DNA of 24,000 bases from Candidatus Peregrinibacteria bacterium. GTDB taxonomy: Bacteria; Patescibacteriota; Gracilibacteria; UBA1369; UM-FILTER-53-11. The translations under genes and the position numbers were made by a program. The stretch lies in contig JACRID010000060.1 of assembly GCA_016220145.1 (NCBI GenBank), forward strand, positions 742-24,741, given 5' to 3'. The notes beneath the pieces are model-generated. The model did not search any database, was not told where the DNA came from, and saw nothing but the letters and a program-made list of their open reading frames with translations. This document shows positions 1-20,049 of this stretch, piece after piece; the stretch's first letter is position 1; every line of letters begins with the position of its first letter.

Positions 1-63
1 ACCGGCGATATCAGCGAAACGGAAGGGATCGAATACGCGCTGGTTCTTGAAGAGGTTCGTGAA

Positions 64-1314
64 TTGTTCATAAAATTGCGCGATTTAACGGCCGTCATGG
101 CGGCCGCCGTTAAGCCAAAACTGATGCATTATATGGGAGATCTTGTGAAAATCCGCCGCAATGGTGAAATTAAGATCAACACCAATGGTTTGCATAAATT
201 CTTGAACGGGACATCCAGTTTCTCAATCGCCATTGACAATAGCCGCTCTCAACGAGTCGTAATTTTTGACGTTGGCTATGCATATTTTTTAATCGAACTT
301 GAACGCGCCCTTTGTCGTGAGACCTACGATGTGCTTTTGGAGAAATATCCCGACCCCATCGTGAGAGAAGCCATTGTCTGTCGGTTGTTCGCGGAGCAAG
401 CACCTGACCCCATTTTGGAAAGCGGCCAGTCCAGTTACGCCGTGTACCTTCTTGCCTTGCATCGCTACCGCACTTCTTTTAAAGATCATGCCTGCCATTT
501 TGCGCAACTTTTTACGTTGCCGCCCCAACAGCCCGGTGAGACCGGTGACGCCGATATTCTGCGTGAAATTCGAGAATTATCCATGTTTCGCACGATAGAT
601 TTTTCCGCTCACGTCGATGGGTGCACCATAAAATTTGCACCGATGGTTAAATATGATGAGGAGGATTCTCATTTTCAACGCCCATTTTCAATATGCATTG
701 CGATGATCGAGGCCGATTCGGCGGAAAAAGATAAACCCGGAGCCCGTTTGGCCGGCATGATAAATCGGCTTACCGGAGACTTTGACATTGGAAGCGGCGA
801 AGATTTGGCCAATCTTACCAATAAAGACACAGCCCTTCACGTCAAGAGGGTGCTTTACCGGCTTATTTTGGACCACCTAAGAAATATGCCTGAAGACATT
901 GCTCGCTCGGCACCCACGCTTAAGCCGCAAAAAATTGCGGAGGAGACGCGTGATGCCGCCGAACAGGTTGTGGCTGATGATACGGAGATAGCGGCGGAAA
1001 CGGAAACTGAGACGGTGATCGTGGCGGAAGAAGTGGAGATACCGACTCCGGAAAGCCCACGGTGCGCGGTTGCAAAGCCGACCGCAACAATCGCCAATCT
1101 TCGCGGAGTACCCGGCAGCCGCATCAAAGGCGCTCTCGACATTTTACTTGGTCCGCCCCTTCGCGTCAGCGGCAGCCATCACGTATACAGAACGCGCCAA
1201 GGTGGAACGTACCCGATCCCCCTCCATGGAACTGACGAGGTTGGCACCGGCATACTCAATAAATGTCTGCGTGAATTCGGAATAACTCCCGCGGAATTGC
1301 GCGGGTGTCTTTAA
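64..1314 (+). CDS. Hypothetical protein with C-terminal HicA-like (YcfA family) domain; N-terminal region of unknown function
   Basis: Long frame-1 ORF. Possible starts are TTG at 64 (AGAGG 8 nt upstream) or ATG at 97. The frame stays open back to nt 1, so the true start may lie outside the window. The last ~65 aa (nt ~1105-1311: RVSGSHHVYRTRQGGTYPIPLHGTDEVGTGILNKCLREFGITPAEL) fit the HicA pattern GSHH...P-x-H-G...G-T-x-x-x-x-L-x-x-x-G-I. An acidic E/T/A-rich linker spans nt ~940-1060. I recognise no motif in the first ~280 aa. Confidence 0.6.
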   Translation: MFIKLRDLTAVMAAAVKPKLMHYMGDLVKIRRNGEIKINTNGLHKFLNGTSSFSIAIDNSRSQRVVIFDVGYAYFLIELERALCRETYDVLLEKYPDPIVREAIVCRLFAEQAPDPILESGQSSYAVYLLALHRYRTSFKDHACHFAQLFTLPPQQPGETGDADILREIRELSMFRTIDFSAHVDGCTIKFAPMVKYDEEDSHFQRPFSICIAMIEADSAEKDKPGARLAGMINRLTGDFDIGSGEDLANLTNKDTALHVKRVLYRLILDHLRNMPEDIARSAPTLKPQKIAEETRDAAEQVVADDTEIAAETETETVIVAEEVEIPTPESPRCAVAKPTATIANLRGVPGSRIKGALDILLGPPLRVSGSHHVYRTRQGGTYPIPLHGTDEVGTGILNKCLREFGITPAELRGCL

Positions 1315-1369
1315 AAATTCTCGATAGCGACAATGTCACCATGCACTCCATTTTTGTTCGATTTAGATT

Positions 1370-2425
1370 ATGAGAAGCGGTTCAGATACAAAACGTGAAC
1401 TTGGAGAATCTTTTAAAAAGATTCTTGATTCCGCCTCTGCGAAAGGGGCTATTCGTCCAATCAAGAAGGTCCATAAACTGCTTTATGATGCCGCGGGCGG
1501 CAGAACGCCATATTCCGACAAGGATTCAACTCAACTGAAGAGCGGACTGGCCGTATCCCCGAGCGGCGCGGCGGCTTGCCTGCTTGATTACGAACGAACA
1601 CGGCAATTTGTGCGCGGTTTAAATATGGCCATCACCGAAGCGCGCAAACACTTTCATGATGAGGTTATTCAGGTTTTATATGCGGGCTGCGGTCCGTTTG
1701 CTCCCCTGGCGATTGCGCAATGTTGGACTTTTTCCCCTGACAAAGTTCAGTTTACGTTGCTGGATATTCATGAAACATCGGTGGATATTGCGCGAGCAAT
1801 TGTCCAATCTTTTGACCTGAAAAGGCACTGCCCGAGAATAATAAAGGCCGACGCCACTAAATATAAATGCCAAGGCGCAAGGCCACACATCGTCGTCACG
1901 GAGACCATGATGTCGACATTGATGTATGAACCGCAAGCGGCAATAACGGCAAATTTGGCTCCCGAAATGCGTCACGGCGGGATTTTTGTGCCGGAAGAAG
2001 TGGCCCTGGACGCTTACATTGAGGAACCTCCCGAGTCGGGCCATCTTGATGGACCAAAACGGCCCTTGGGTCTGGTTTTTCGCCTGACAAAAGATACCCG
2101 TCCGAATGCAAAAATTAAGTCTGAATTTGCTCTTCCTGCAGTAAAATCCAAAAAAGGATTTGAGAACCTGCTGATCTCGACGCGCGTGCGCGTGTTCGGG
2201 AACATCGCCATTGAACCCGATACTGCGGAAATAACAAAATCTCTTTTTGTCACATCATTTGACAGGGAAGACGAAGGTTCGCTTGTTGCCATGGAATATG
2301 TTCCGGGGGATACTTTTTTGAAATATGTGATGCAAGGCGACGGACCATTTAAGGAGACCCGCCTCGCATTCCCCGCCGTCAGGTCGGAATTCACGGAAGG
2401 CCAGCTGTCCTTTCGACCAAAATAA
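1370..2425 (+). CDS. Putative class I SAM-dependent methyltransferase with PRMT-like double-E loop
   Basis: 351-aa ORF with ATG start, 55 nt after the previous stop. Glycine-rich motif-I-like VLYAGCGPFAPLA (nt ~1673-1711) is followed by an acidic post-I residue (FTLLDIHE). TETMMSTLMYE (E at 1901-1903 and 1928-1930) has the E-x8-E spacing and the M/L/Y positions of the PRMT double-E loop SEWMGYCLFYE. A ~135-aa C-terminal domain follows the Rossmann-type core, as in PRMTs. Confidence 0.6.
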   Translation: MRSGSDTKRELGESFKKILDSASAKGAIRPIKKVHKLLYDAAGGRTPYSDKDSTQLKSGLAVSPSGAAACLLDYERTRQFVRGLNMAITEARKHFHDEVIQVLYAGCGPFAPLAIAQCWTFSPDKVQFTLLDIHETSVDIARAIVQSFDLKRHCPRIIKADATKYKCQGARPHIVVTETMMSTLMYEPQAAITANLAPEMRHGGIFVPEEVALDAYIEEPPESGHLDGPKRPLGLVFRLTKDTRPNAKIKSEFALPAVKSKKGFENLLISTRVRVFGNIAIEPDTAEITKSLFVTSFDREDEGSLVAMEYVPGDTFLKYVMQGDGPFKETRLAFPAVRSEFTEGQLSFRPK

Positions 2426-2429
2426 TCTT

Positions 2430-3055
2430 ATGAACACACCTTTTCGACAAGAATTGCGGGAATCCATGCACGGCATTATGGACAGCCGCGATATCCATAG
2501 TGTCCCTTACGCAATGGCGACCCTTAAAATTTGCGGGCAAATGGCGCCGTCCAAGCCGAAACCCGAATGGATACATTCCACCGTGACGCCGGCGGGTCGT
2601 GCGATATCTCCCGCGGACGCGGCTCAGTGTTTACGAGATTGCGAGCGCACATATCATTTTGCGCACGGATTAAAAGACGCCATCAAGGAGGCGCAAAACC
2701 GTTTTCGAGGAGAAGTCATCCGTGTGTTTTATGCCGGTTGCGGGCCGTTTGCTCCGCTGGCATTAACTCAAACCGCCGTATTTTCGCCGGACGAAATCAA
2801 ATTTACGGCTCTGGATATCCATCATTATTCAGTTGAGCTTGCTCGTTCCATCGCCGAAGCACGAATGCAGTTATTGAATCCGACGCGGCATATATAACCG
2901 CGCCGCTTATGGTCACGTCGTTTATTGCGGAACATGCTGCGGGTTGCCGAATAAGGTTAATGTATAAACCCGGAGACGCCTGTTTAAAATACGCAACGAG
3001 AGGAAGCAACGGGCCTTGGGGGAAGACATGTGAGGTATGCCCTCGTGAAACCTAA
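2430..3055 (+). pseudogene. Decayed tandem paralog of the upstream methyltransferase-like gene (frameshift plus internal deletion)
   Basis: The frame-3 ORF 2430-2897 aligns to residues ~55-145 of the 1370-2425 product: AISPADAAQCLRDCERTYHFAHGLKDAIKEAQNRFRGEVIRVFYAGCGPFAPLALTQTAVFSPDEIKFTALDIHHYSVELARSIAEA versus AVSPSGAAACLLDYERTRQFVRGLNMAITEARKHFHDEVIQVLYAGCGPFAPLAIAQCWTFSPDKVQFTLLDIHETSVDIARAIVQS. Homology then continues in frame 2: NAVIESDAAYI ~ PRIIKADATKY. It jumps directly to LMVTSFIAEHAAGCRIRLMYKPGDACLKYATRGSNGPWGKT ~ LFVTSFDREDEGSLVAMEYVPGDTFLKYVMQGDGPFKET, ending at TAA 3053-3055. About 120 codons are missing, including the double-E loop. Confidence 0.75.
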
Positions 3056-3056
3056 C

Positions 3057-6000: not shown

Positions 6001-6350
6001 AGGCAGCGCAGCGTCTCCAGCTTTGCTCCCCTTTGGGATTCCGCCGCTTCTTCTTGCGTCGCGGTTTGGTCATCCGCTATATCAAATTTAAACACCGGAA
6101 CGGCTGGAGAAAGCCATTCTTCACACGCACGCGCAACGTTTTCTTGTTCAACCTTATCGTTAACAATCCACACCGTCGGCTTGCCGCAAACTTTCGCATC
6201 GGCCCTGAAAATATCGGCCAAAATAAAAGCTTTGGAGGAAAAATTCCCGGCACCCGATATGGTTACGGTGGGGAACTTTTGTATTGCTTGAAGTACGGAA
6301 GTATTCTGAAGCTCGGGGAAAAAATTGATGAGCTCCTTTGTTTTAGACAC
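3057..6350 (-). CDS. mfd: Transcription-repair coupling factor Mfd
   Basis: 1097 aa with GTG start. Superfamily-2 helicase motifs are GDVGFGKTEVAMRAAF (Walker A), VIDEEQRFG (DExx box), LTLTATPIPRTL and QLRGRVGR. The length and the CarD/TRCF-like middle region (DDLVVHINHGIARFEGL) are typical of Mfd. Confidence 0.95.
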   Translation of the reverse strand: MSKTKELINFFPELQNTSVLQAIQKFPTVTISGAGNFSSKAFILADIFRADAKVCGKPTVWIVNDKVEQENVARACEEWLSPAVPVFKFDIADDQTATQEEAAESQRGAKLETLRCLKFLVEENRQIIVAPYSALMKEVPDVEDLKRRTIKIQLNEAISNVEIFEKLIAAGYEVSKDEYLERGTYLGKGGVLNVFPVNADSPVRIEFEFDRVSDIFEYSQDSGDVIQHVKSTFVYPINVEFKGQNFFQFMPDGGLIVDDELDVTDEFYEAWDDVFAKRSKETRLITFTSFPEDEPFHRNLRYLSVLKYQDLMDLANELKEKSLQNWRAIYFTKHGPAIRELLKDRKMNFGDGDAIFEDGVDFQKSTVRIVDLEKEEVAPHSFQCSDGKILVIADKEIANLYEEKHKKVAERVFWEFLTTLKQDDLVVHINHGIARFEGLEKRMVDGITREYMKLGYAENDKLFVPIDQADKVNKFVGAEEEAPKLTRLGSAEWATMTKRVRKETEQIARELLELYAKRKQAHGLGFDQDDLEQVKFEKTFPYQETPGQIKAIADVKQDMEKAEPMDRLICGDVGFGKTEVAMRAAFKAVASKKQVALISPITILADQHYRSFVKRMEPFNVRVEMLSRFRSQREQRVILDKLGKGEIDIVVGTHRLLQKDIKFKDLGLVVIDEEQRFGVKQKERFKKLRTEVDILTLTATPIPRTLNICLNKLRDISTITTPPPGRLPVITEVRKYSHELIREAILREIRRGGQVYFLHNRVQTIDAIAERLKALIPEARFCVAHGKLLSKDLEERILDFKDHKFDVLVSSTIIENGIDLANANTLIVNNAEKFGLAQLYQLRGRVGRSKTQAYAYFLHHSQRLRLDAKKRLRAIVEASELGSGFQIAMKDLEIRGAGDILGVNQHGVINVVGVSHFIRMLNKAVEDLQAGRFTEEAAEEPEVAIELPLTAYIPDDYIVNSKEKINIYQRMAAADSSQYLDELKDDVVEDFGKLPREVSNLFRVIELKILAKKAGLTVVKAENIHMQTGKHIVLFMGKKVKPESIVYMLQHNPRWQISGSKMRIAIEYLGLNWFDELRECILLLGEKVDKSKLEAQK

Positions 6351-6378
6351 TGTGCCTTAAATTAAATTTTCCAAACCT

Positions 6379-7485
6379 TTAAACTTTCAGCGGCATGATT
6401 ATGTAGAGATAATCCTCTTTTTTTGCCGGCTTGATAACTACGGGGGTCAGTCTTTCATCCATCTCGATGGCCACGTTTTCTTTCATCCTGGAGAGAACGT
6501 CCAGCAAATACTGGGCGTTCAGCGCAACCTTATTGTTTTCACCGCTCATTTTAATGTCCACCTCCGCTTTTTCTTCGCCGACACTGGTTTCGTCCGTGGC
6601 TACTTGAAGTCTTCCGTCGTTGGTTGCAGTAAGCTTTATACTATTATTATTCTCTTTTGCAAACAGACTTACGCGTTTTGTCGCCATCGCCAGATGGTCC
6701 GCCCCCGTTTCGAGCTTGGTTCTGGTGGCCTTTGGAATGATTTTTTCATAGTCGGGGAACTTGCCTTCAATCAATCTGGAAATCAATTCAACCCCGTCCA
6801 GCGTAAATAAAACTTGGTTTTGCGAAACATGAATCGTCACCGGTTCTTTTTCGAATTTTGTGCCGAGAATGCGTCCCAGCTCAAGAAGAGTCCTGACCGG
6901 AACAATACATTCTATCGTCTTTTCGACCTTCTTTAGAAGTTTTGTCCTTTTTTCCGCCAGTCGAAAACTGTCCGTCGCAACCATCTTCAAAACGTCTTTA
7001 TCCGCGTGCATATAAACTCCCGCCAAAATCGGTCTTGCGGAGGTTGTTGCTGCGGAAAAAACCGTGGAATCTATGGCTGTGGCCAAATCGCTTGCCGTTA
7101 TTTCTATGGAAGATTCTTTTTCAATTTTAGGGATTATCGGAAATTCATCCGGCGAGATTCCCTTAATTTTTGTCTGTGAAGATTTTGACTTTAAGTGCAA
7201 CGCCATACCGTCCTCAACCCTCATTTCAACACTTGAGTCCTCCAACAAAGAAACGTAGCTGGATATAAGTTTTGCGGGGATTGTAATGGCCCCCTCGTTT
7301 TTAACATCGGCCGGAATTGAATAACTGATTGCAATCTCCAGGTTCGTTGCGGAAAAATAAAGCTTCTTGTTTGTTGCCTTTATTAAAATATTATTTAAGA
7401 CGGGCAGGGTTGTGGACGCGCTAACCGCACAGCCAACAATGTCGAGAGCGAAGTGCAGATCTTTTTGTGAACAAGTTAATTTCAT
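6379..7485 (-). CDS. dnaN: DNA polymerase III beta sliding clamp
   Basis: 368 aa. The N-terminus MKLTCSQKDLHFALDIVGCAVSASTTLPVLNNILIKATNKKLYFSATNLEIAI matches the canonical DnaN start. Length is consistent with a three-domain clamp, and the C-terminus reads IIMPLKV. It sits 28 nt upstream of mfd on the same strand. Confidence 0.95.
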   Translation of the reverse strand: MKLTCSQKDLHFALDIVGCAVSASTTLPVLNNILIKATNKKLYFSATNLEIAISYSIPADVKNEGAITIPAKLISSYVSLLEDSSVEMRVEDGMALHLKSKSSQTKIKGISPDEFPIIPKIEKESSIEITASDLATAIDSTVFSAATTSARPILAGVYMHADKDVLKMVATDSFRLAEKRTKLLKKVEKTIECIVPVRTLLELGRILGTKFEKEPVTIHVSQNQVLFTLDGVELISRLIEGKFPDYEKIIPKATRTKLETGADHLAMATKRVSLFAKENNNSIKLTATNDGRLQVATDETSVGEEKAEVDIKMSGENNKVALNAQYLLDVLSRMKENVAIEMDERLTPVVIKPAKKEDYLYIIMPLKV

Positions 7486-7499
7486 AAGAAATCGTGTTT

Positions 7500-7527
7500 A
7501 TTATACGCAAACCATGAGCCTTAACAA
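7500..7527 (-). promoter_or_regulatory. Candidate sigma70-type promoter for dnaN (TTGTTA-16 nt-TATAAT)
   Basis: The minus strand reads TTGTTAaggctcatggtttgcgTATAATaaacacgatttcttATG. The -35 is the complement of 7522-7527 and the -10 is the complement of 7500-7505. Only 14 nt separate the -10 from the dnaN ATG, which implies a very short leader without an SD. Confidence 0.4.
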
Positions 7528-7970
7528 TAAGAAAGAACAGTTACTTTCTTTAATTAGTAGTGATGATAGTACTTGCGACTTGAGTGACTTTGTTGTCTTT
7601 TATATATATATAAATCAATACGCCGCCAAAGCTTAATTTAAGAGCAAAACCCAATGTGGAATCCCAAATTTGTGTTCATTGAAAGCTCTATAAAAAGCCC
7701 AAAACTAATATTTACACCAGCGCGCCCGTGAGCAAGCCGCCAAAATAAAAAAAACACTACGTCAACAAGACATACGCAGTCTTTTGTAAAAACAAAAATC
7801 AATGAATAAAAAAATGGATTCCACGCAGGGGTAAATATGTTCAAAACCTGTGCAGTGGGCGTTGATAAAACCTTCAAAGCTTGGGCATGAAGGCACTCGA
7901 CAGGTTAGAAAGTCCTCCAAAAACACCGGTGTTAACGGCGAGAAGGAGGCCCCGTGTTCAAAAGTTTTAA

Positions 7971-9848
7971 TTAGATTTCAACAATTATTGGAAGAATCAG
8001 GGGGTGTCGTTCAATCTTTCGGTGCGAAAACCTATCTAGACATCCTCGAATATAGGCTTTTAATTCTCCCCGTTTTGCATTTTGCATGCGATCGATAGCT
8101 TCTTCGTATGATCTCTTGGACAGCGCAATGGTTTCATTCACTATTTCCTGAGACTCTTTCATATATATGAAACCGCGGGAAACCACCTCCGGATCACGCA
8201 GTAACTTCTTTGTTTTGGCGTCGGCCGTAAACAACACAATCAGCACGCCGTTTTCGGCCATAACTTGGCGGTCCATAATAATTTGAGCACCGACATCCCC
8301 CACCCCCTTGCCGTCAATCATCACATAATTTGCCGTTACGCGTTCGGCGCTTTTTCGAAGTTCCCCGTTGGTAATTTCCAAAACATCGCCATTTTCCACA
8401 ATAACCACGTTTTTGTCCGCCATACCCAAGGTTCGGCCGATTTCCGCATGCGCTTGTCGCATAAAAAGCTCACCGTGCTGCGGCACAAGATATTTCGGCT
8501 TCACCAAACTGATCATTAATTTCAGCTCTTCGGTTTGGCCGTGGCCCGAGGTGTGAACATCCATTACCTGGTTGAAAATCACGTGCGCGCCAAGCCTTAC
8601 CAGGTTATTTATAACGGTGAAAATCGAGCGCTCGTTGCCCGGAATCGGCGAAGACGAAAGAACAACCGTGTCGCCTTTTTTGATGGACAAATGAGCGTGG
8701 TCGCCAAGCGCCACGCGGGCCAGCGCGGAAACCGCCTCGCCCTGCGAACCGGTGCTTAAAATCAAAACATGTTCGTCCTTTATTTTGCCAAGCTTATTAA
8801 TGGGATGAAGAATGCCCGGCGGCACTTTTAAAAACTGCAACTGCTGCGCGACGGCGATGTTGTCCGCCATGCTGCGACCCGAAATGAAAACCTTGCGTCC
8901 GTATTTTGCGGCGGAATTTATAACCTGCTGAATGCGCCCGATAAGAGAAGAAAACGAAGCGATAATAATACGACCCGACGCAGCCTTAATAATGTCATCC
9001 AGAGTTTCACCGATCTTTTTTTCGGAAATTGTGTGACCGGGTTTTAATGCGTTCGTACTGTCCGAAAACAGCGCGATGACGTTTTGTGAGCCAAGAGATG
9101 CGATTTTTGCAAAGTCTGTCGGGGCCTGGAAAACAGGGGTGTAATCAAATTTAAAGTCGCCGGTGTGAACCACCGTGCCGGCCGGCGTGCGCAAAATGAG
9201 CCCCATGCTGTCGGGAATGCTGTGATTCACGCGGAACCAATCAACGATGAAATTGCCCAGTCGCAGCTGTTTTGTCGGGTCGACCACATTCAGTTTCGCC
9301 TTTTGCTTGAGCCCAAATTCCTCAAGGCGCTTTTGCATGAGGCCAACCGTCAGTTTGCCGCTGAAAACCGGCGGAAAATTCAACTTCGGCAACAGATAAG
9401 GCAACGCGCCAATGTGGTCCAAATGCCCGTGGGTAATCAGGACACCGCGAATGCGATCCAGTTTATTCATTAAATAAGACACGTCGGGGATGACGTAGTC
9501 GATGCCGAGCATGTCTTCCTCGGGAAACTGCAGGCCCATATCCACAATCACAATGTCGCGATCATACTCAAAAACCATCATATTTTTGCCGACTTCGTCC
9601 AAACCGCCGAGCGGAATCACGCGAAGCAGACCGCGTTTCACCTGTTGATTTTGAAGCGGTTTTCTCACGGGCATAGGAGGTTTGTTTGCGCCCATTTTTC
9701 TCATCAAAGCTGGAGTTTTTATCGGTTGTGCGCTTGGTACGGGCTTTGCTGCCGGTTTTGGTTGCGCCGGCGTGTCAAATACAATTTTTTCTCCATCGGC
9801 ACCGCCGACGGTCTTGGAAATCCAATCCGTTAATTTTTCTTCTTGCAT
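7971..9848 (-). CDS. rnj: Ribonuclease J (metallo-beta-lactamase / beta-CASP family)
   Basis: 625 aa. It carries the HxHxDH motif (VLITHGHLDHIGALPYL), further beta-CASP-type segments (HTGDFKFD, HTSGHG) and an RNase J-like C-terminal domain. A ~73-aa Pro/Lys-rich N-terminal extension precedes the core (LRVIPLGGLDEVGKN). Confidence 0.9.
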   Translation of the reverse strand: MQEEKLTDWISKTVGGADGEKIVFDTPAQPKPAAKPVPSAQPIKTPALMRKMGANKPPMPVRKPLQNQQVKRGLLRVIPLGGLDEVGKNMMVFEYDRDIVIVDMGLQFPEEDMLGIDYVIPDVSYLMNKLDRIRGVLITHGHLDHIGALPYLLPKLNFPPVFSGKLTVGLMQKRLEEFGLKQKAKLNVVDPTKQLRLGNFIVDWFRVNHSIPDSMGLILRTPAGTVVHTGDFKFDYTPVFQAPTDFAKIASLGSQNVIALFSDSTNALKPGHTISEKKIGETLDDIIKAASGRIIIASFSSLIGRIQQVINSAAKYGRKVFISGRSMADNIAVAQQLQFLKVPPGILHPINKLGKIKDEHVLILSTGSQGEAVSALARVALGDHAHLSIKKGDTVVLSSSPIPGNERSIFTVINNLVRLGAHVIFNQVMDVHTSGHGQTEELKLMISLVKPKYLVPQHGELFMRQAHAEIGRTLGMADKNVVIVENGDVLEITNGELRKSAERVTANYVMIDGKGVGDVGAQIIMDRQVMAENGVLIVLFTADAKTKKLLRDPEVVSRGFIYMKESQEIVNETIALSKRSYEEAIDRMQNAKRGELKAYIRGCLDRFSHRKIERHPLILPIIVEI

Positions 9849-11537: not shown

Positions 11538-13070
11538 TCACACTTCCTCCCTTACTTCACTAGGCTCCGTCTTTCTTAAGAGGCTCCACATATCCTTCGA
11601 AACAGCTTTTGTTAGCAACATGCACGCCACGAAAACGATTCCGCCGATCGGCATTAAGATAAACAGGCTCTTCGTGAAAAGCAGTTTGTTGAAGTAGTCG
11701 GTGATGGAATTCAAAACAATTCCCATCACAAGCGCCGAAAACGCAGTCTTCGCCAAGAACGGCAAGTCCCAAATCCCACGGATTCTTTTCTTCGTGCGTA
11801 TAAAAAGGCACGCGAGCATCGTTAATTCCGAGGCCGCCGCAGAAATCGATGCGCCAATAAATCCATACCGTGGTGCCAAAAATAAATTTAATCCGACATT
11901 AACGATTACCGTAATCCCATTAATCCACAAAAGCTCCACCTGTCGCCCCATTGCAACCAACGTGTAGCTTAGCGCAACGTGAATATAAGTGAACGTCATT
12001 GCCACCAGCAAAATTTTAAGCGCCAAATCGGAACCCCAAATAAAGCCGGTTGCTGTGCGTTCCGTCAAAAAGTCTGGGCTGCTCACCGCGGCCGTTATTG
12101 GCCACGCCAAAACGTAACCGCCAACCATGATAGGTATAGCCATTGCCGCCAATGCGTCAATTGAATAGCGAACAATGCGGCCGGTCTTTTCATTAATACT
12201 GTCGAGGCTTATCGTCAAAAGCGGCAAAACCGAATTCATAAAATAATGCGGAAGAATTTGCAGAATTTCCAAAAAGCGCATTGGTACGCCATAATATCCA
12301 ATCTGCTCTTTCATCTCAAATAAGGACAACATGACAGTGCCCATGCGGAAATAAATGGTGCCGAGAACCAGTGCGGTTCCATACGGCAGTGCCTTCACTA
12401 AAACTTCTTTCCAAAATTTGAAATCAAATTGAAAAGAAATTGGTATTAATTTTGTAGACGCCGCGTACGTCGTGACGACATTGATCAACCCGCCGCCGAT
12501 CCAGCCCAAAAGCAAATGAGGAAAGCCAGCGACCGGGTCGTTCGGATACAGATACAATATGGTTGCCAAAATGTAGCCGACAGTAAATATTTTACTGATT
12601 AAAATTGAGATTGATGCCCATTTCATGCGCAAATGGAACTGCAAAACCGACGACATTGTGCCGGCAATTAAGGTAAAAACCGTGGCGATGGAAACCAACA
12701 AAATGCCAAATGGAATATGGCTGCCGCGGTATGCGGGCATCACGGCCGCAATGAGTGCGCCAATCCCCAAAGCAAATATCGCCAGTCCGGTGCGCATGGA
12801 CAAAACATTCCCGACGATTTTTTGGATGGCGGATTTTTCATTCGAATGCGCCATCTCGCGCACGGCGATTGTAAACAAGCCAAAATCCGCGATTATCGCG
12901 AACATGGCGGTGTAGTCATAAATGGTCGTATATTCGCCATAAGTGCTTTTGGTCAGGTAGTTGGTGATGAATTTTACGCTGACTATTCCAAGGACCGCGG
13001 TTACAACCTTTCCTATAACTTGCCACGCGGTATTCGAAAGAATTTTTCTGGCTTGCGACATCTTCCCCAT
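11538..13070 (-). CDS. MOP-superfamily lipid-linked oligosaccharide flippase (Wzx/MurJ-like polysaccharide biosynthesis protein)
   Basis: 510 aa and strongly hydrophobic throughout, with roughly 12-14 predicted TM segments. The N-terminus ILSNTAWQVIGKVVTAVLGIVSVKFITNYL...YGEYTTIY resembles Wzx/Polysacc_synt proteins. Its position beside murD is compatible with lipid II export. Confidence 0.7.
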   Translation of the reverse strand: MGKMSQARKILSNTAWQVIGKVVTAVLGIVSVKFITNYLTKSTYGEYTTIYDYTAMFAIIADFGLFTIAVREMAHSNEKSAIQKIVGNVLSMRTGLAIFALGIGALIAAVMPAYRGSHIPFGILLVSIATVFTLIAGTMSSVLQFHLRMKWASISILISKIFTVGYILATILYLYPNDPVAGFPHLLLGWIGGGLINVVTTYAASTKLIPISFQFDFKFWKEVLVKALPYGTALVLGTIYFRMGTVMLSLFEMKEQIGYYGVPMRFLEILQILPHYFMNSVLPLLTISLDSINEKTGRIVRYSIDALAAMAIPIMVGGYVLAWPITAAVSSPDFLTERTATGFIWGSDLALKILLVAMTFTYIHVALSYTLVAMGRQVELLWINGITVIVNVGLNLFLAPRYGFIGASISAAASELTMLACLFIRTKKRIRGIWDLPFLAKTAFSALVMGIVLNSITDYFNKLLFTKSLFILMPIGGIVFVACMLLTKAVSKDMWSLLRKTEPSEVREEV

Positions 13071-13184
13071 TTTAGCGCATTTCCTGTATCCTACACACGA
13101 GCAAAGCGAGTGTGCTTCGTTCTTTCGTCCCCGTTAGGGCGTTCGGGAGGGGGACGGAGAGTGGCTGCGCTCCATAAAATCACC

Positions 13185-14288
13185 ATGCAAGAACTGAAGC
13201 CTAAACTTGAAGAACTTAATCGCCTGATTCTGCGCGGGCTGGATTGTCTTGATGTTCCCAGGCTGAAAAAACGCATTGGGGAACTGGAAGAAATCACCAG
13301 CGCGCCGGAATTTTGGAGCAATCAAAGGCATGCAAAAGAAATTGGTCAGGAGTTGAAGCATCTGCAGGTTTTGGTGAAAGATTGGGAGGATTCAAAACGC
13401 GATGTTGATGAGCTTTCGGCCATGTTGCCGACGATTCACCCTGAAGATGATCCAAAGGCGGCGGAGGAATTTCGCGGAATGGTGGCGGAGTTGGGACATC
13501 GTTTTGAGAGGTTAAATCGCGAATCTTTCTTCTCTAGCAAATATGACAAAAATAACGTGATTATTTTGATTCACGCGGGAACGGGAGGAAAAGACGCCCA
13601 GGATTGGGCCCAGATGCTGATGCGAATGTATGTAAGATATGCGGAAAGGCGCGGCTACGGTGTGGAAATTTTGGACGAGTCATATGGCGAAGAAGTCGGC
13701 ATGAAAAGCGCCACAATTTTGATCTCGGGAATATATGCATATGGCTATTTGAAGGGAGAAAAGGGCGTTCACAGATTGGTGCGCCTCTCACCATTTAATG
13801 CGAAAAATTCGCGCGAAACCTCGTTTTCGTTGGTGGAAGTGATGCCGGAAGTGCCGGAAGCGATCGATATAACGATAAAATCGGAAGAGTTACAGCTGGA
13901 TGCCTTTAGAGCCGGCGGAAAGGGAGGACAAAATGTGAATAAGGTAAGTTCGGCGGTTCGGCTTACTCATCTCCCGACGGGAATTGTTGTGACTTGCCAG
14001 AGCGAAAGGTCGCAGATCCAAAACCGCGAACAGGCGATGACGATTTTGCAATCGAAACTTGCTCAACTGCAGGACGAAAAGAAACTTGAGGAAATGAAGG
14101 AGTTGAAGGGCAAACGCGTGGAAATGTCATGGGGAAATCAAATTCGCTCGTATGTTTTGCATCCGTATACGATGGTAAAAGATCACCGGACGGATTATGA
14201 AACTTCCCAGACGGCAAAGGTATTAGATGGCGACCTGGACGGTTTTATAGAAGCCGAAATTGAGTGGGCGGCGCGTTCTAAACAATAG
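13185..14288 (+). CDS. prfB: Peptide chain release factor 2 (no programmed frameshift)
   Basis: It carries the RF2-specific SPF motif (RLVRLSPFNAKNSRETSF) and the GGQ motif (AGGKGGQNVNKVSSAVRLTHLPTGIVV). The N-terminus MQELKPKLEELNRLILRGLDCLD aligns with the RF2 start. The tracked ORF begins at 12717, but ATG 13185 gives a normal 367-aa RF2. The usual CTT TGA C shift site is replaced by in-frame CTT GAT G (13248-13254). Confidence 0.93.
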   Translation: MQELKPKLEELNRLILRGLDCLDVPRLKKRIGELEEITSAPEFWSNQRHAKEIGQELKHLQVLVKDWEDSKRDVDELSAMLPTIHPEDDPKAAEEFRGMVAELGHRFERLNRESFFSSKYDKNNVIILIHAGTGGKDAQDWAQMLMRMYVRYAERRGYGVEILDESYGEEVGMKSATILISGIYAYGYLKGEKGVHRLVRLSPFNAKNSRETSFSLVEVMPEVPEAIDITIKSEELQLDAFRAGGKGGQNVNKVSSAVRLTHLPTGIVVTCQSERSQIQNREQAMTILQSKLAQLQDEKKLEEMKELKGKRVEMSWGNQIRSYVLHPYTMVKDHRTDYETSQTAKVLDGDLDGFIEAEIEWAARSKQ

Positions 14289-17999: not shown

Positions 18000-18028
18000 C
18001 TGATTTCTCGAGTAAAATATGGTATAAT
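18000..18028 (+). promoter_or_regulatory. Candidate extended -10 promoter for the 18040/18304 gene pair
   Basis: TGgTATAAT lies at 18020-18028, with a weak -35 (CTGATT, 18000-18005) 17 nt upstream. Only 11 nt separate the -10 from ATG 18040, which implies a near-leaderless transcript. Confidence 0.4.
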
Positions 18029-18039
18029 AACAGTGAAAT

Positions 18040-18300
18040 ATGAAGATAAAAAAACGGCATTTTTCACTCCTTAAAAAGTACCTGTGGTGGTATCGCGGGG
18101 ACGCCAAGGATGTTTTCGACAAGGTTAAAACAAATAAAATCATTACGTATGTTTTGAACTTTGGAGATTACGGAGATCTCAATAAGCTACTCCCCATTTT
18201 CTCAAAAAACGATATAAAAAAAACGCTCGAAACTCCGCTTCACGGCGTGTGGGACAAGAAATCGCTGAATTTTTGGACGCTTTATTTCGGCAAAGATTGA
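18040..18300 (+). CDS. Small hypothetical protein, putative partner/antitoxin of the downstream nucleotidyltransferase
   Basis: 86-aa ORF with ATG start. Its stop is 3 nt before the next start, a translationally coupled layout. I recognise no domain with confidence; the role is assigned by position only. Confidence 0.45.
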   Translation: MKIKKRHFSLLKKYLWWYRGDAKDVFDKVKTNKIITYVLNFGDYGDLNKLLPIFSKNDIKKTLETPLHGVWDKKSLNFWTLYFGKD

Positions 18301-18303
18301 CTT

Positions 18304-18948
18304 ATGCATATTGATGTTTTGCCATCTCAACAACGGAATCTGGCCAAGCTCATTGGAAACTGGCCGCCAGCAAAAGATTTTTATCTTGCCGGAGGAACAG
18401 CTTTGACTTTGCAGATAGGTCACCGCCGGTCCGCGGATTTTGATTTTTTTTCCAAGAAAGCCTTTTCCGCAGAGAAATTATTGGAAAATATTGAGGATTA
18501 TTTCAAGATGCCGGTTCGGGTTTTACAGATAGATAATCATACTTTGACGATTTTACTGAAAGACGTACGCGTAAGTTTTTTTGGCGCTTATGGGTTTCCC
18601 CTGATCGGTAAGCTTTTGCGCGACTTTTATTTCCCGGTCGCATCTGCGGAAGATATTTTCGCCATGAAACTGCTTGCAATTCAACACCGTACCGAAATGA
18701 AAGATTACGTCGATATTTTGGCTCTAATTGAGCAATCCGGGATAAATTTGCAAAAAGGGATTAGTTTGGCCCAAAAGAAATTTAGCGCATCTTTTAACTC
18801 CATGATTTCCCTTAAAGCATTGGTTTATTTTGACGATTTGGATTCGCGCGAACTATTCGCAATCGCCTTTGTAGGGAAAAAATCGCCTATCAATTTTAAA
18901 TTGCTGAAACAAAAGCTCATCTCAGAGGTTAGGTCTGTTCAAATATAA
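18304..18948 (+). CDS. AbiEii/AbiGii-family nucleotidyltransferase (type IV toxin-antitoxin toxin-like)
   Basis: The N-terminal motif FYLAGGTALTLQIGHRRSADFDFF matches the GGTAL...HR-x-S-x-D-x-D-F signature of the AbiEii (DUF1814) family. The later KDYVDILAL matches its KD-x-x-D segment. Confidence 0.65.
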   Translation: MHIDVLPSQQRNLAKLIGNWPPAKDFYLAGGTALTLQIGHRRSADFDFFSKKAFSAEKLLENIEDYFKMPVRVLQIDNHTLTILLKDVRVSFFGAYGFPLIGKLLRDFYFPVASAEDIFAMKLLAIQHRTEMKDYVDILALIEQSGINLQKGISLAQKKFSASFNSMISLKALVYFDDLDSRELFAIAFVGKKSPINFKLLKQKLISEVRSVQI

Positions 18949-18960
18949 GTGAGACTTCTT

Positions 18961-20049
18961 TTACCTTCTTGGTAACCGCAAAAGGCCATACAGCGTTTTT
19001 TTATATACGATATCGAACGCCGGCGGATATTTTATTTCTTTCCCGCCGAATTTTTTCTTAAATTCAGTGACGCCCTTCCACGGATGGTTTGAGTCGTCGG
19101 CCGGTGCGATCCCCAAAAAATCATAAAACTTCAAATCGCGTTTTTTGGCTTCCAAAATAGCTTCCCATTGCAGTAAATATGGCGCCATAAGGTTGCGGTC
19201 GGCGCCGGAGGAGGCTCCATAGTAGTAAATTGCAGTATCTTTATAAAAAGTGGCAATAAGTCCGGCCGTTACTTTTTTGGTTTCGGGTTCGTATGCCAAA
19301 AACAGCGCAGACATATTTTCTTGCCCCAGCGTTTTTAAGAAATTTTCATAGAATGAGCATGGATGAATTCCGAATTCATCTCGGGCGGCTGTCGTTTTTA
19401 GAATTTCATAAAATTCATCAAAGTCTTTTTGAGGAACATCTTCGAATTTTTTAAACATGCGCACATGCACGCCTTTACGCACAGCGACGCCAATATTGTA
19501 ACGGCCTTTTGGCTTCATTTGAGCCAAAATCTCCTCCTCCGACCCCTCGATATTTAATACCAAGGTGTGCTCCGGCGTAAATCGGTGCGGCGCATTACAA
19601 ATCTTAAAATTCTTCTTTAATTCAGAGGTCCAACTTTGATTCCAAGATGCCGGCGGCTCAATTCTGGCAAAAATCGCCTTTTCCTCCGCCGCCAGTCTTT
19701 TTAAATCCTCAAAAATCTCTTCCTTAAAACCCAGCGGTCCAAACGGCACCCAAAGCCAAGAAAACCCAAGCGGTAGCTTAATTTTAATAACCAAACAGCT
19801 CGCCTCGCCCAGGCCGAGCCGCGGCGTGGGCAGGCTAAGGCCTGATGCCGTCCCCAAGCTGGGGCGGCCTACTGCATTACTGCGCCCAAAGGGCGCATCC
19901 TTTTCCTTTGTCTCAAGCACCCAAAACTTGCTACGATACGGAATCGTTTTTTGAAATTCCCCAAACGCCAAAGACTGGAACAGGGTTCCGGCCGGATGGC
20001 GCTTTACAGTTTTTTCGTAATTTAATTCTTCGAAGTGTGACACGTTCAC
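18961..20049 (-). CDS. FemAB-family peptidoglycan interpeptide-bridge aminoacyltransferase (FemX/MurM-like)
   Basis: 362 aa with GTG start, 3 nt downstream of the ftsZ stop. Family-typical segments are LFQSLAFGEFQK, MKPKGRYNIGVAVRKGV, TAIYYYGASS...RNLMAPYLLQWEAILEAKKRDLKFYDFLGI and WKGVTEFKKKFGG. It contains a ~34-codon repeat-derived insertion (see the repeat at 19796-19900). Confidence 0.85.
   Translation of the reverse strand: MNVSHFEELNYEKTVKRHPAGTLFQSLAFGEFQKTIPYRSKFWVLETKEKDAPFGRSNAVGRPSLGTASGLSLPTPRLGLGEASCLVIKIKLPLGFSWLWVPFGPLGFKEEIFEDLKRLAAEEKAIFARIEPPASWNQSWTSELKKNFKICNAPHRFTPEHTLVLNIEGSEEEILAQMKPKGRYNIGVAVRKGVHVRMFKKFEDVPQKDFDEFYEILKTTAARDEFGIHPCSFYENFLKTLGQENMSALFLAYEPETKKVTAGLIATFYKDTAIYYYGASSGADRNLMAPYLLQWEAILEAKKRDLKFYDFLGIAPADDSNHPWKGVTEFKKKFGGKEIKYPPAFDIVYKKTLYGLLRLPRR
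19796..19900. repeat. GC-rich multi-hairpin repeat, long copy, inserted in-frame in the femAB-family CDS
   Basis: It shares AGGCCGAGCCGCGGC and GGC(C)TACTGCATTA(C/T)TGCGCCC(A/G)AAGGGCGCATCC with 23066-23131. Hairpins are TGCGCCC aaa GGGCGCA (19881-19897) and CCCCA agc TGGGG (19852-19864). It is translated on the minus strand as DAPFGRSNAVGRPSLGTASGLSLPTPRLGLGEAS. Confidence 0.7.

Follow-up and report, generated by a model that had tools for sequence, protein, structure and literature searches.

Gene content of the locus

We analyzed a 24,000-nt stretch of DNA from Candidatus Peregrinibacteria bacterium (hereafter, the window) and, within it, the block at positions 1 to 3056, where three reading frames on the plus strand all converge on mfd, which is encoded on the minus strand. 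The block includes the 3′ part of a gene for a long protein with a C-terminal HicA-type domain (ORF1), an intact gene for a protein resembling the protein arginine methyltransferases (PRMTs) (ORF2), and the broken pieces of a second methyltransferase gene. A preceding reading of the sequence alone (hereafter, the sequence-only reading) had proposed that these genes form a two-gene accessory module of a previously undescribed kind. In the sample of loci collected here, ORF1 and ORF2 look like unrelated neighbors, not a new two-gene system, and we consider it likely that the block is a strain-variable stretch past the mfd 3′ end that holds independent genes.

One public contig, L001 (Logan SRR12113407, 11,651 bp), encodes exactly the ORF2 product; it overlaps the window and reaches 1,770 nt further left. 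The features of the block and its flanks are as follows, in window coordinates unless L001 is named.

L001:2–664, plus strand: incomplete AbiEii toxin gene, 850 nt to the left of ORF1 (Pfam E = 4e-19, PADLOC E = 4e-71)
1–1314, plus strand: ORF1, 3′ 437 codons, with frame 1 open from base 1 and the stop codon at 1312–1314
930–1075, plus strand: acidic low-complexity linker of ORF1 (…EETRDAAEQVVADDTEIAAETETETVIVAEEVEIPTPES…), read from the translation and poorly aligned across the family
1090–1311, plus strand: HicA-type domain of ORF1, similar to the double-stranded RNA-binding domain (dsRBD) and assigned by Pfam match, G-S-H motif, and fold match to 1whz
1288–1305 (L001 3058–3075), plus strand: terminator-like hairpin CCCGCGGAATTGCGCGGG from a consensus scan, overlapping the end of ORF1, with a 55-nt gap to ORF2 after it
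1370–2425, plus strand: ORF2, intact, 351 amino acids (aa), PRMT-fold S-adenosylmethionine (SAM)-dependent methyltransferase by profile, fold, and motifs
~1673–1699, plus strand: motif I of ORF2, VLYAGCGPF, from the translation
~1898–1936, plus strand: double-E loop of ORF2, TETMMSTLMYEPQ, with E178 and E187 (family pattern TETMxxxLxxEPQ)
2430–2897, plus strand: N-terminal part of the methyltransferase remnant, 155 codons, open, 44% identical to ORF2 residues 8–147 (E = 6e-36)
2867–3055, plus strand: C-terminal part of the remnant, in another frame, matching ORF2 residues 278–330 at 45–47% identity
3057–6350, minus strand: mfd, the conserved anchor outside the block, with its Pfam domains on the contig

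The stop codons of the C-terminal remnant part and of mfd lie 1 nt apart. To the left of ORF1, L001 carries a gene for a 161-aa ACT-like protein on the minus strand and then the AbiEii fragment, which is cut by the contig end, so that the left boundary of the locus, out of sight in the window, stays out of sight after the 1,770-nt extension. The first 3 kb had been described as different in character from the remainder of the window. The block does stand apart by gene content, but its composition is native: its GC content is 0.47–0.52, and in GC, GC3, and codon-usage distance ORF1 and ORF2 lie within the values seen for the window's housekeeping genes. The hairpin at the end of ORF1 argues weakly against a single ORF1-ORF2 operon; it is weak evidence because such matches are no commoner in this region than in shuffled sequence.

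The long-HicA protein ORF1

The complete ORF1 gene (L001:1513–3084, 523 aa) begins outside the window, 258 nt to its left. The C-terminus of its product matches the Pfam family HicA_toxin (PF07927) with E-values of 3.5e-6 to 4.7e-6 and scores of 27.1–27.4 bits (cut-off 27). An exhaustive HMMER scan of 1.84 billion cluster representatives yielded 95 related representatives, most of them 450–580 aa long, of the same architecture and matching over the full length; 27 of 38 family members match HicA_toxin. In a 19-sequence alignment of the family, G477, S478, and H479, together with two more positions of the C-terminal domain, are invariant. R485 is nearly invariant as well, and an R-x-R motif (YRTRQGG) is present in the HicA domain. 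The source annotation of one family member reads predicted RNA binding protein YcfA (HicA-like mRNA interferase family); another member originates from Candidatus Peregrinibacteria. A locus search with a 4-sequence alignment of the family found one metagenome locus.

The structure of the family was assessed with an AlphaFold2 model (pLDDT 83) of P0107, the best full-length homolog in the HMMER scan, which is 38% identical to ORF1. This model consists of three parts: a large helical region that includes a small subdomain of beta-sheet, a disordered linker (residues 406–447, the equivalent of the ORF1 linker, with pLDDT below 50), and a C-terminal alpha-beta-beta-beta-alpha domain. Foldseek aligned the C-terminal domain with 1whz, a HicA-family structure, at probability 1.00, with a TM-score of 0.75 and an rmsd of 2.1 over 65 columns. 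The Pfam match, the invariant G-S-H, and this fold match together confirm the HicA-type domain that the sequence-only reading had recognized. For the N-terminal region of the P0107 model, fold searches against PDB and BFVD returned no match, and the sequence profile of the family retrieved only low-complexity matches from PDB. The N-terminal ~400 aa of ORF1 are thus modeled as an alpha-helical region with a small beta-sheet, without a known fold. By Pfam, neither neighbor of ORF1 (the ACT-like gene and ORF2) is a HicB-type gene, and ORF1 matched none of the defense models of PADLOC-DB 2.0.

The fusion of a HicA domain had been described as unusual. The fusion is real but recurrent, being present in ~95 protein clusters, and it matches a published layout, making ORF1 a new member of the fused-HicA kind. 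Class 13 of Gerdes 2024 (mBio, PMC10865869) comprises monocistronic HicA proteins whose N-terminal part is large and alpha-helical and for which cis-regulation was proposed by analogy with CapRel and EzeT. Like these proteins, ORF1 is encoded by a single gene and combines a mostly alpha-helical N-terminus with a C-terminal HicA domain of the dsRBD type and no separate HicB. The likeness to class 13 (exemplar WP_067334119.1) is one of architecture and description; class 13 proteins are reported as 340–440 aa long (PMC10865869), whereas ORF1 family members are mostly in the 450–580 aa range given above, and the P0107 model has in addition the small beta-sheet subdomain and the long disordered acidic linker. 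With canonical type II HicAB systems, ORF1 shares the HicA fold and the G-S-H motif, but there HicA is a small stand-alone protein (60–85 aa) accompanied by HicB, whereas in ORF1 it is the C-terminus of a 523-aa protein with no HicB on either side; several ORF1 relatives, moreover, are found in a housekeeping context and not in a defense island.

By analogy with the class 13 proteins, ORF1 is probably a single-chain, monocistronic, cis-regulated HicA in which the N-terminal region would restrain the HicA domain until some signal is received. The released domain would then cleave or bind RNA.

The PRMT-fold protein ORF2

ORF2 matched no family in Pfam or NCBIfam. It has 105 relatives at 25–45% identity, nearly all unnamed, and Pfam PF05185 is matched, weakly, by just 2 of 39 family members. 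Across 39 aligned sequences of the family, E178 and E187 of the double-E loop, R76 of an LDxxRT motif, and the AGxGP residues of motif I (A105, G106, G108, and P109) are invariant, and C107 (consensus YAGCGPF) is replaced by T in a few members. A profile built from the family matches Caenorhabditis elegans PRMT7 (3wst) with an E-value of 2.1e-5. In this alignment, E178 and E187, nine residues apart, correspond to both PRMT7 glutamates in AEVFDTELIGEG, and the LDxxRT and AGxGP motifs correspond to ILDFDRN and LDIGTGTG of PRMT7, respectively. In PRMTs, the D..R residues of the N-terminal helix and the glycine-rich motif I contact SAM, and the paired glutamates of the double-E loop hold the guanidinium group.

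The AlphaFold2 model of ORF2 (pLDDT 89.8, pTM 0.90) supports the same assignment. All 50 of the top 50 PDB fold matches are PRMTs (PRMT7, PRMT5, CARM1, PRMT6, PRMT2, PRMT8, and type I PRMT), with E-values down to 3.6e-12, and these matches span both the Rossmann and the beta-barrel domains over ~320–380 columns, with TM-scores of up to 0.60 (PRMT6). Thus, the PRMT-like enzyme named in the sequence-only reading is corroborated by the PRMT7 profile match and by modeling, at the level of the fold and the active-site motifs. The model contains no helix past residue 199, so the helical dimerization arm within the barrel is apparently lacking. No THW loop could be located in ORF2, for which there was no residue-level structural alignment to go by. 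ORF2 also gave a partial match to the PADLOC model mad2 (E = 6.5e-5, 19.9 bits), which we rejected as similarity of the generic methyltransferase core.

Because the SAM-binding residues and the double-E loop are conserved, we infer that ORF2 is a SAM-dependent guanidino-methyltransferase, separate from ORF1, that would act on arginine in a protein or peptide. ORF2 resembles eukaryotic PRMT1/5/6/7 and CARM1 in the Rossmann domain followed by a C-terminal beta-barrel, the D..R of the N-terminal helix, the glycine-rich motif I, and the double-E loop. It differs from them in showing only 9–16% identity, in having AGCGPF instead of GxGxG in motif I, in belonging to a bacterial family without a Pfam or NCBIfam model, and, in the predicted structure, in the apparent lack of a dimerization arm in the barrel.

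A scan of one genome per species detected the ORF2 family in at least 585 species genomes, from Acidobacteriota, Bacteroidota, Verrucomicrobiota, Planctomycetota, Gemmatimonadota, Chloroflexota, Gammaproteobacteria, Bacillota, Spirochaetes, and groups of the candidate phyla radiation (CPR). ORF2 is therefore a member of a large, uncurated bacterial family with the PRMT fold, whose genes are usually solitary or located beside genes unrelated to HicA. A bacterial radiation of PRMT-related peptide methylases was noted by Aravind and colleagues, as summarized in PMC3417536, and this summary is the only literature on bacterial PRMTs that our search turned up. According to the summary, those enzymes share with ORF2 the bacterial provenance and the PRMT fold, are thought to methylate peptides, and are encoded in secondary-metabolite operons with dioxygenases, nonribosomal peptide synthetases, and amine oxidases. 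Genes of the ORF2 family, in contrast, are mostly solitary, about one-quarter of the loci have them beside tail-collar-like genes, and the window copy is found in neither context.

The tail-collar-like neighborhood was seen in ~21 of 83 ORF2-family loci, from several phyla, in which the PRMT-fold gene adjoins two or three tandem genes encoding ~175–200-aa proteins. We take the products of these tandem genes to be phage tail collar-like on the strength of the motif TTFGGNG..F.LPDLRGR. Examples are found around position 8000 of L033, L046, L047, L051, L052, L053, L057, L072, L075, L081, and L082, and these neighborhoods often also hold a formyltransferase-like gene, a GNAT gene, and two small conserved genes. 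This conserved neighborhood could point to the substrate of the ORF2 family.

In two CPR genomes, one from Gracilibacteria (L048:7728–9062) and one from Peribacteria (L050:7839–8930), the PRMT-fold gene occupies the same position, among genes that, by the look of their N-terminal sequences, are presumably tsaD-like, CCA-adding-enzyme-like, and RumA/TrmA-type methyltransferase-like. The shared position suggests that in some CPR lineages the gene may have been inherited stably and vertically. The gene for the closest database homolog of ORF2, P0002 (45% identical, on L095), has a divergently transcribed neighbor (L095:3–2009, minus strand) whose product, at least 669 aa long, bears a split signature of class I methyltransferases (Methyltransf_11/25, E = 4e-6) and is unrelated to ORF1.

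Genomic contexts of the two families

On the ORF2 side, we collected 82 loci, not counting the contig of the window itself, and included as much as 8 kb of flanking sequence on either side of each. Among the open reading frames (ORFs) of these loci, there was no match to ORF1 or to the hidden Markov model (HMM) of its family, and the HicA-domain HMM, applied to ORFs of at least 45 aa at E ≤ 1, likewise gave no match. On the ORF1 side, none of six other contexts of the family contained an ORF2-family gene. Co-occurrence had been set beforehand as the test that could refute the module, and in the sample obtained the two families do not co-occur; the two-gene module is thus not supported.

The six ORF1-family contexts have no conserved partner gene in common. 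In L085–L088, the gene follows rnpA, yidC, jag, and a gene for an SLH protein and precedes ldh. The same ldh neighbor is present in L084 and is thus kept by two family members that are just 42% identical. In L089, the gene is accompanied by yidD and rnpA, in L090 by housekeeping genes, and in L096 it adjoins Arr and a type I restriction-modification (R-M) system.

Several observations weigh against reading the two genes as independent. Only six independent ORF1-family contexts are available, two of them on contigs shorter than 3 kb, so the absence of co-occurrence is much stronger from the ORF2 side. Contig L091, from the closest of the relatives compared below, ends inside its PRMT-like gene X, which places the upstream neighbor of X beyond the contig. 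The Pfam score of the ORF1 HicA domain lies right at the gathering cut-off. Furthermore, methyltransferases of other kinds occur near two ORF1 relatives. L086 (10844–11773, minus strand) and L087 (9353–10282, minus strand) encode a canonical 309-aa PRMT (PF22528 PRMT_C, E = 3e-11) located 2.9 kb downstream of the long-HicA gene and beside a Y1 transposase, and in L096 a small gene with a weak Methyltransf_25 match (6188–6787, plus strand) lies 214 nt upstream of the long-HicA gene. These cases could hint at a looser link between HicA and methyltransferases.

Even if ORF1 and ORF2 are independent, ORF1 might be no toxin at all. It is possible, although we regard it as unlikely, that ORF1 is a resident RNA-binding factor whose HicA-type domain only binds RNA and that ORF2 is its unrelated neighbor. 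The location of family members among core genes of RNA and protein biogenesis (rnpA, yidC, yidD, and jag), the ldh neighbor retained despite the low identity of the two proteins, the lack of a HicB partner and of any PADLOC match, and the native composition are all compatible with such a role. The G-S-H triad, however, is of the catalytic type and is invariant across the family, as expected of an active HicA RNase; one member adjoins the type I R-M system and the window copy lies near AbiEii; and fused HicA proteins are treated as cis-regulated toxins in published work (PMC10865869).

The module of the sequence-only reading could also be retained as a lineage-specific functional pair, in which the long-HicA protein, or its target, would be modified by the PRMT-like enzyme, and the enzyme would serve as an antitoxin, immunity, or licensing factor. 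In its favor, ORF1 and ORF2 are neighbors on one strand, 55 nt apart; both are fast-evolving; AbiEii is encoded nearby; the HicA domain offers the R-x-R motif and the nearly invariant R485; and the methyltransferases just described lie near two other ORF1-family genes. Nevertheless, we find such a pair improbable: a HicA domain is near none of the 82 ORF2-family loci and an ORF2-family gene is in none of the six ORF1-family contexts; the methyltransferases near other ORF1 relatives differ in family, distance, and strand, and one of them is beside a transposase; a terminator-like hairpin separates ORF1 from ORF2; and the partial generic match of ORF2 to mad2 is the only PADLOC match of either protein. 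Its most specific version, in which arginine methylation of the long-HicA protein by ORF2, as in the R-x-R of the YRTRQGG strand, would restrain or license the RNase, is highly improbable.

The second methyltransferase copy and variability past mfd

The sequence-only reading had also described a duplicated, decaying copy of the methyltransferase. A pseudogenized paralog is indeed present, but it does not stem from a recent duplication. Its N-terminal part retains motif I and stops short of the double-E loop; between the two parts, ~130 codons are gone, the double-E loop included, and the copy is frameshifted. With the loss of these codons and of the loop, the second copy is dead. The two methyltransferase copies of the window are 44–51% identical, and ORF2 is no closer to the N-terminal part than are remote members of the family (for example, P0003 and P0011); both facts indicate old paralogs. 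Positions 2430–3055 are the remains of an anciently diverged PRMT-like paralog that was stripped of its catalytic middle. A tandem second copy of the ORF2 family is present also in L006, L047, L051, and L062, in no case beside a HicA gene. The gene beside P0003 in L002 was considered as a further ORF2 paralog and rejected, as it is not one.

The mfd homologs retrieved are named Candidatus Peregrinibacteria. Four relatives (L091–L094) keep the anchor RF1, Polysacc_synt, MurD-like, RNase J, dnaN, and mfd, and in all of them synteny breaks at the mfd 3′ end. The genes past mfd are the following.

L091 (mfd identity 93%): PRMT-like gene X, intact over 330 codons to the contig end
L092 and L093 (mfd identity 77%): genes of 695, 1240, and 356 aa without assigned function
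L094 (mfd identity 77%): small genes without assigned function, VIT1, and DHH

Presence or absence of the block next to the conserved mfd-dnaN anchor had been suggested as a check. The anchor holds in all four relatives, but a PRMT-like gene follows mfd only in L091, the closest of them.

DNA of L091 aligns with the window from position 2867 onward at 84% identity. Gene X is a mosaic. Over its first ~264 residues, the product is 59–61% identical to ORF2, whereas its C-terminus is 75–76% identical to the C-terminal remnant part of the window, compared with 47% to the ORF2 C-terminus; its identity to the N-terminal remnant part is just 44%. Along the comparison of gene X with ORF2, no sharp switch point was found before ~residue 265. 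An assembly chimera was considered for gene X and rejected, given that the paralogs are ~45–50% identical in protein and would have no long shared k-mers. The mosaic implies that the locus has been remodeled, by recombination or deletion between tandem paralogs, since the divergence of the two strains. Two orders of events fit: an ancestor with two tandem paralogs, which L091 would have fused by recombination whereas the window lineage would have deleted the middle of the second, or a single ancestral gene that was interrupted by a paralogous segment in the window lineage.

Synonymous (dS) and nonsynonymous (dN) divergence and their ratio (omega) between the window and L091 were as follows.

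ORF2 versus gene X: dS 0.98, dN 0.27, omega 0.27
mfd: dS 1.01, dN 0.037, omega 0.036
dnaN: dS 1.10, dN 0.027, omega 0.024

The dS of the ORF2-X pair equals that of mfd and dnaN; hence, the ORF2-like part of X is orthologous to ORF2. At the same dS, the ORF2 protein evolves ~7–10 times faster than mfd and dnaN, with purifying selection persisting. The description of the block as an accessory, fast-evolving locus thus holds in part: the genes past mfd differ among the four relatives, the omega of ORF2 is elevated as given above, and AbiEii lies 850 nt to the left.

The variability of the region among relatives, the AbiEii toxin fragment at the left end with its strong PADLOC match, and the presence of a pseudogene could also be accommodated by a recently acquired mobile defense island beside mfd that would comprise everything between AbiEii and the remnant, both included, and hence the ACT-like gene, ORF1, and ORF2. 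We give this possibility little credence. GC, GC3, and codon usage are native; the dS between ORF2 and its ortholog equals that of the flanking core genes; no integrase or transposase is visible in the readable part of the stretch; and a search around the block for tRNA genes, Rfam families, and flanking direct or inverted repeats found nothing meaningful. A phage-borne origin was dropped, because no relatives of either family were detected in viral contigs.

The block is therefore probably best regarded as independent genes in a stretch past the mfd 3′ end that varies from strain to strain: a putative cis-regulated HicA, a predicted guanidino-methyltransferase, and what is left of an old paralog of the latter.

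Other features of the window

A second AbiEii gene, complete (Pfam E = 3.3e-18), is located at 18304–18948 (plus strand), between the genes for peptide deformylase and a FemAB-family protein, in a low-GC stretch (18001–19500, GC 0.39–0.42). Together with the fragment on L001, there are two AbiEii genes within ~20 kb.

Positions 7486–7970, from dnaN to RNase J, form a 485-nt gene-free stretch with a GC content of 0.37 (measured over 7501–8000) and no adjacent dnaA. A scan for DnaA boxes (TTATCCACA, 1 mismatch allowed) revealed no cluster in this stretch; the whole window contains 12 sites, compared with 4.3 in shuffled sequence.

The longest ORF for RF-1, which contains the PCRF domain (523 aa, 12717–14288, plus strand), overlaps by ~350 nt with a convergent polysaccharide-synthesis gene (11538–13070, minus strand). 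In this ORF, the PCRF domain begins at residue 183, and the products of relatives are ~336–368 aa long; the true RF-1 start is probably an internal ATG.

Implications

The result is mainly corrective: being neighbors in a single genome does not make two genes a system. Were ORF2 nonetheless to control ORF1, an arginine-methylation-controlled toxin would represent a new toxin-antitoxin logic and would give PRMT-like enzymes a first role in CPR bacteria. Should the enzymes of the ORF2 family truly methylate arginine, bacterial protein arginine methylation would be broader than assumed, and the recurring triplets of tail-collar-like genes would suggest a substrate for the family. The N-terminal ~400 aa of the long-HicA proteins, which have no structural relative, are a candidate cis-regulatory or sensor domain for the HicA RNase in CPR bacteria.

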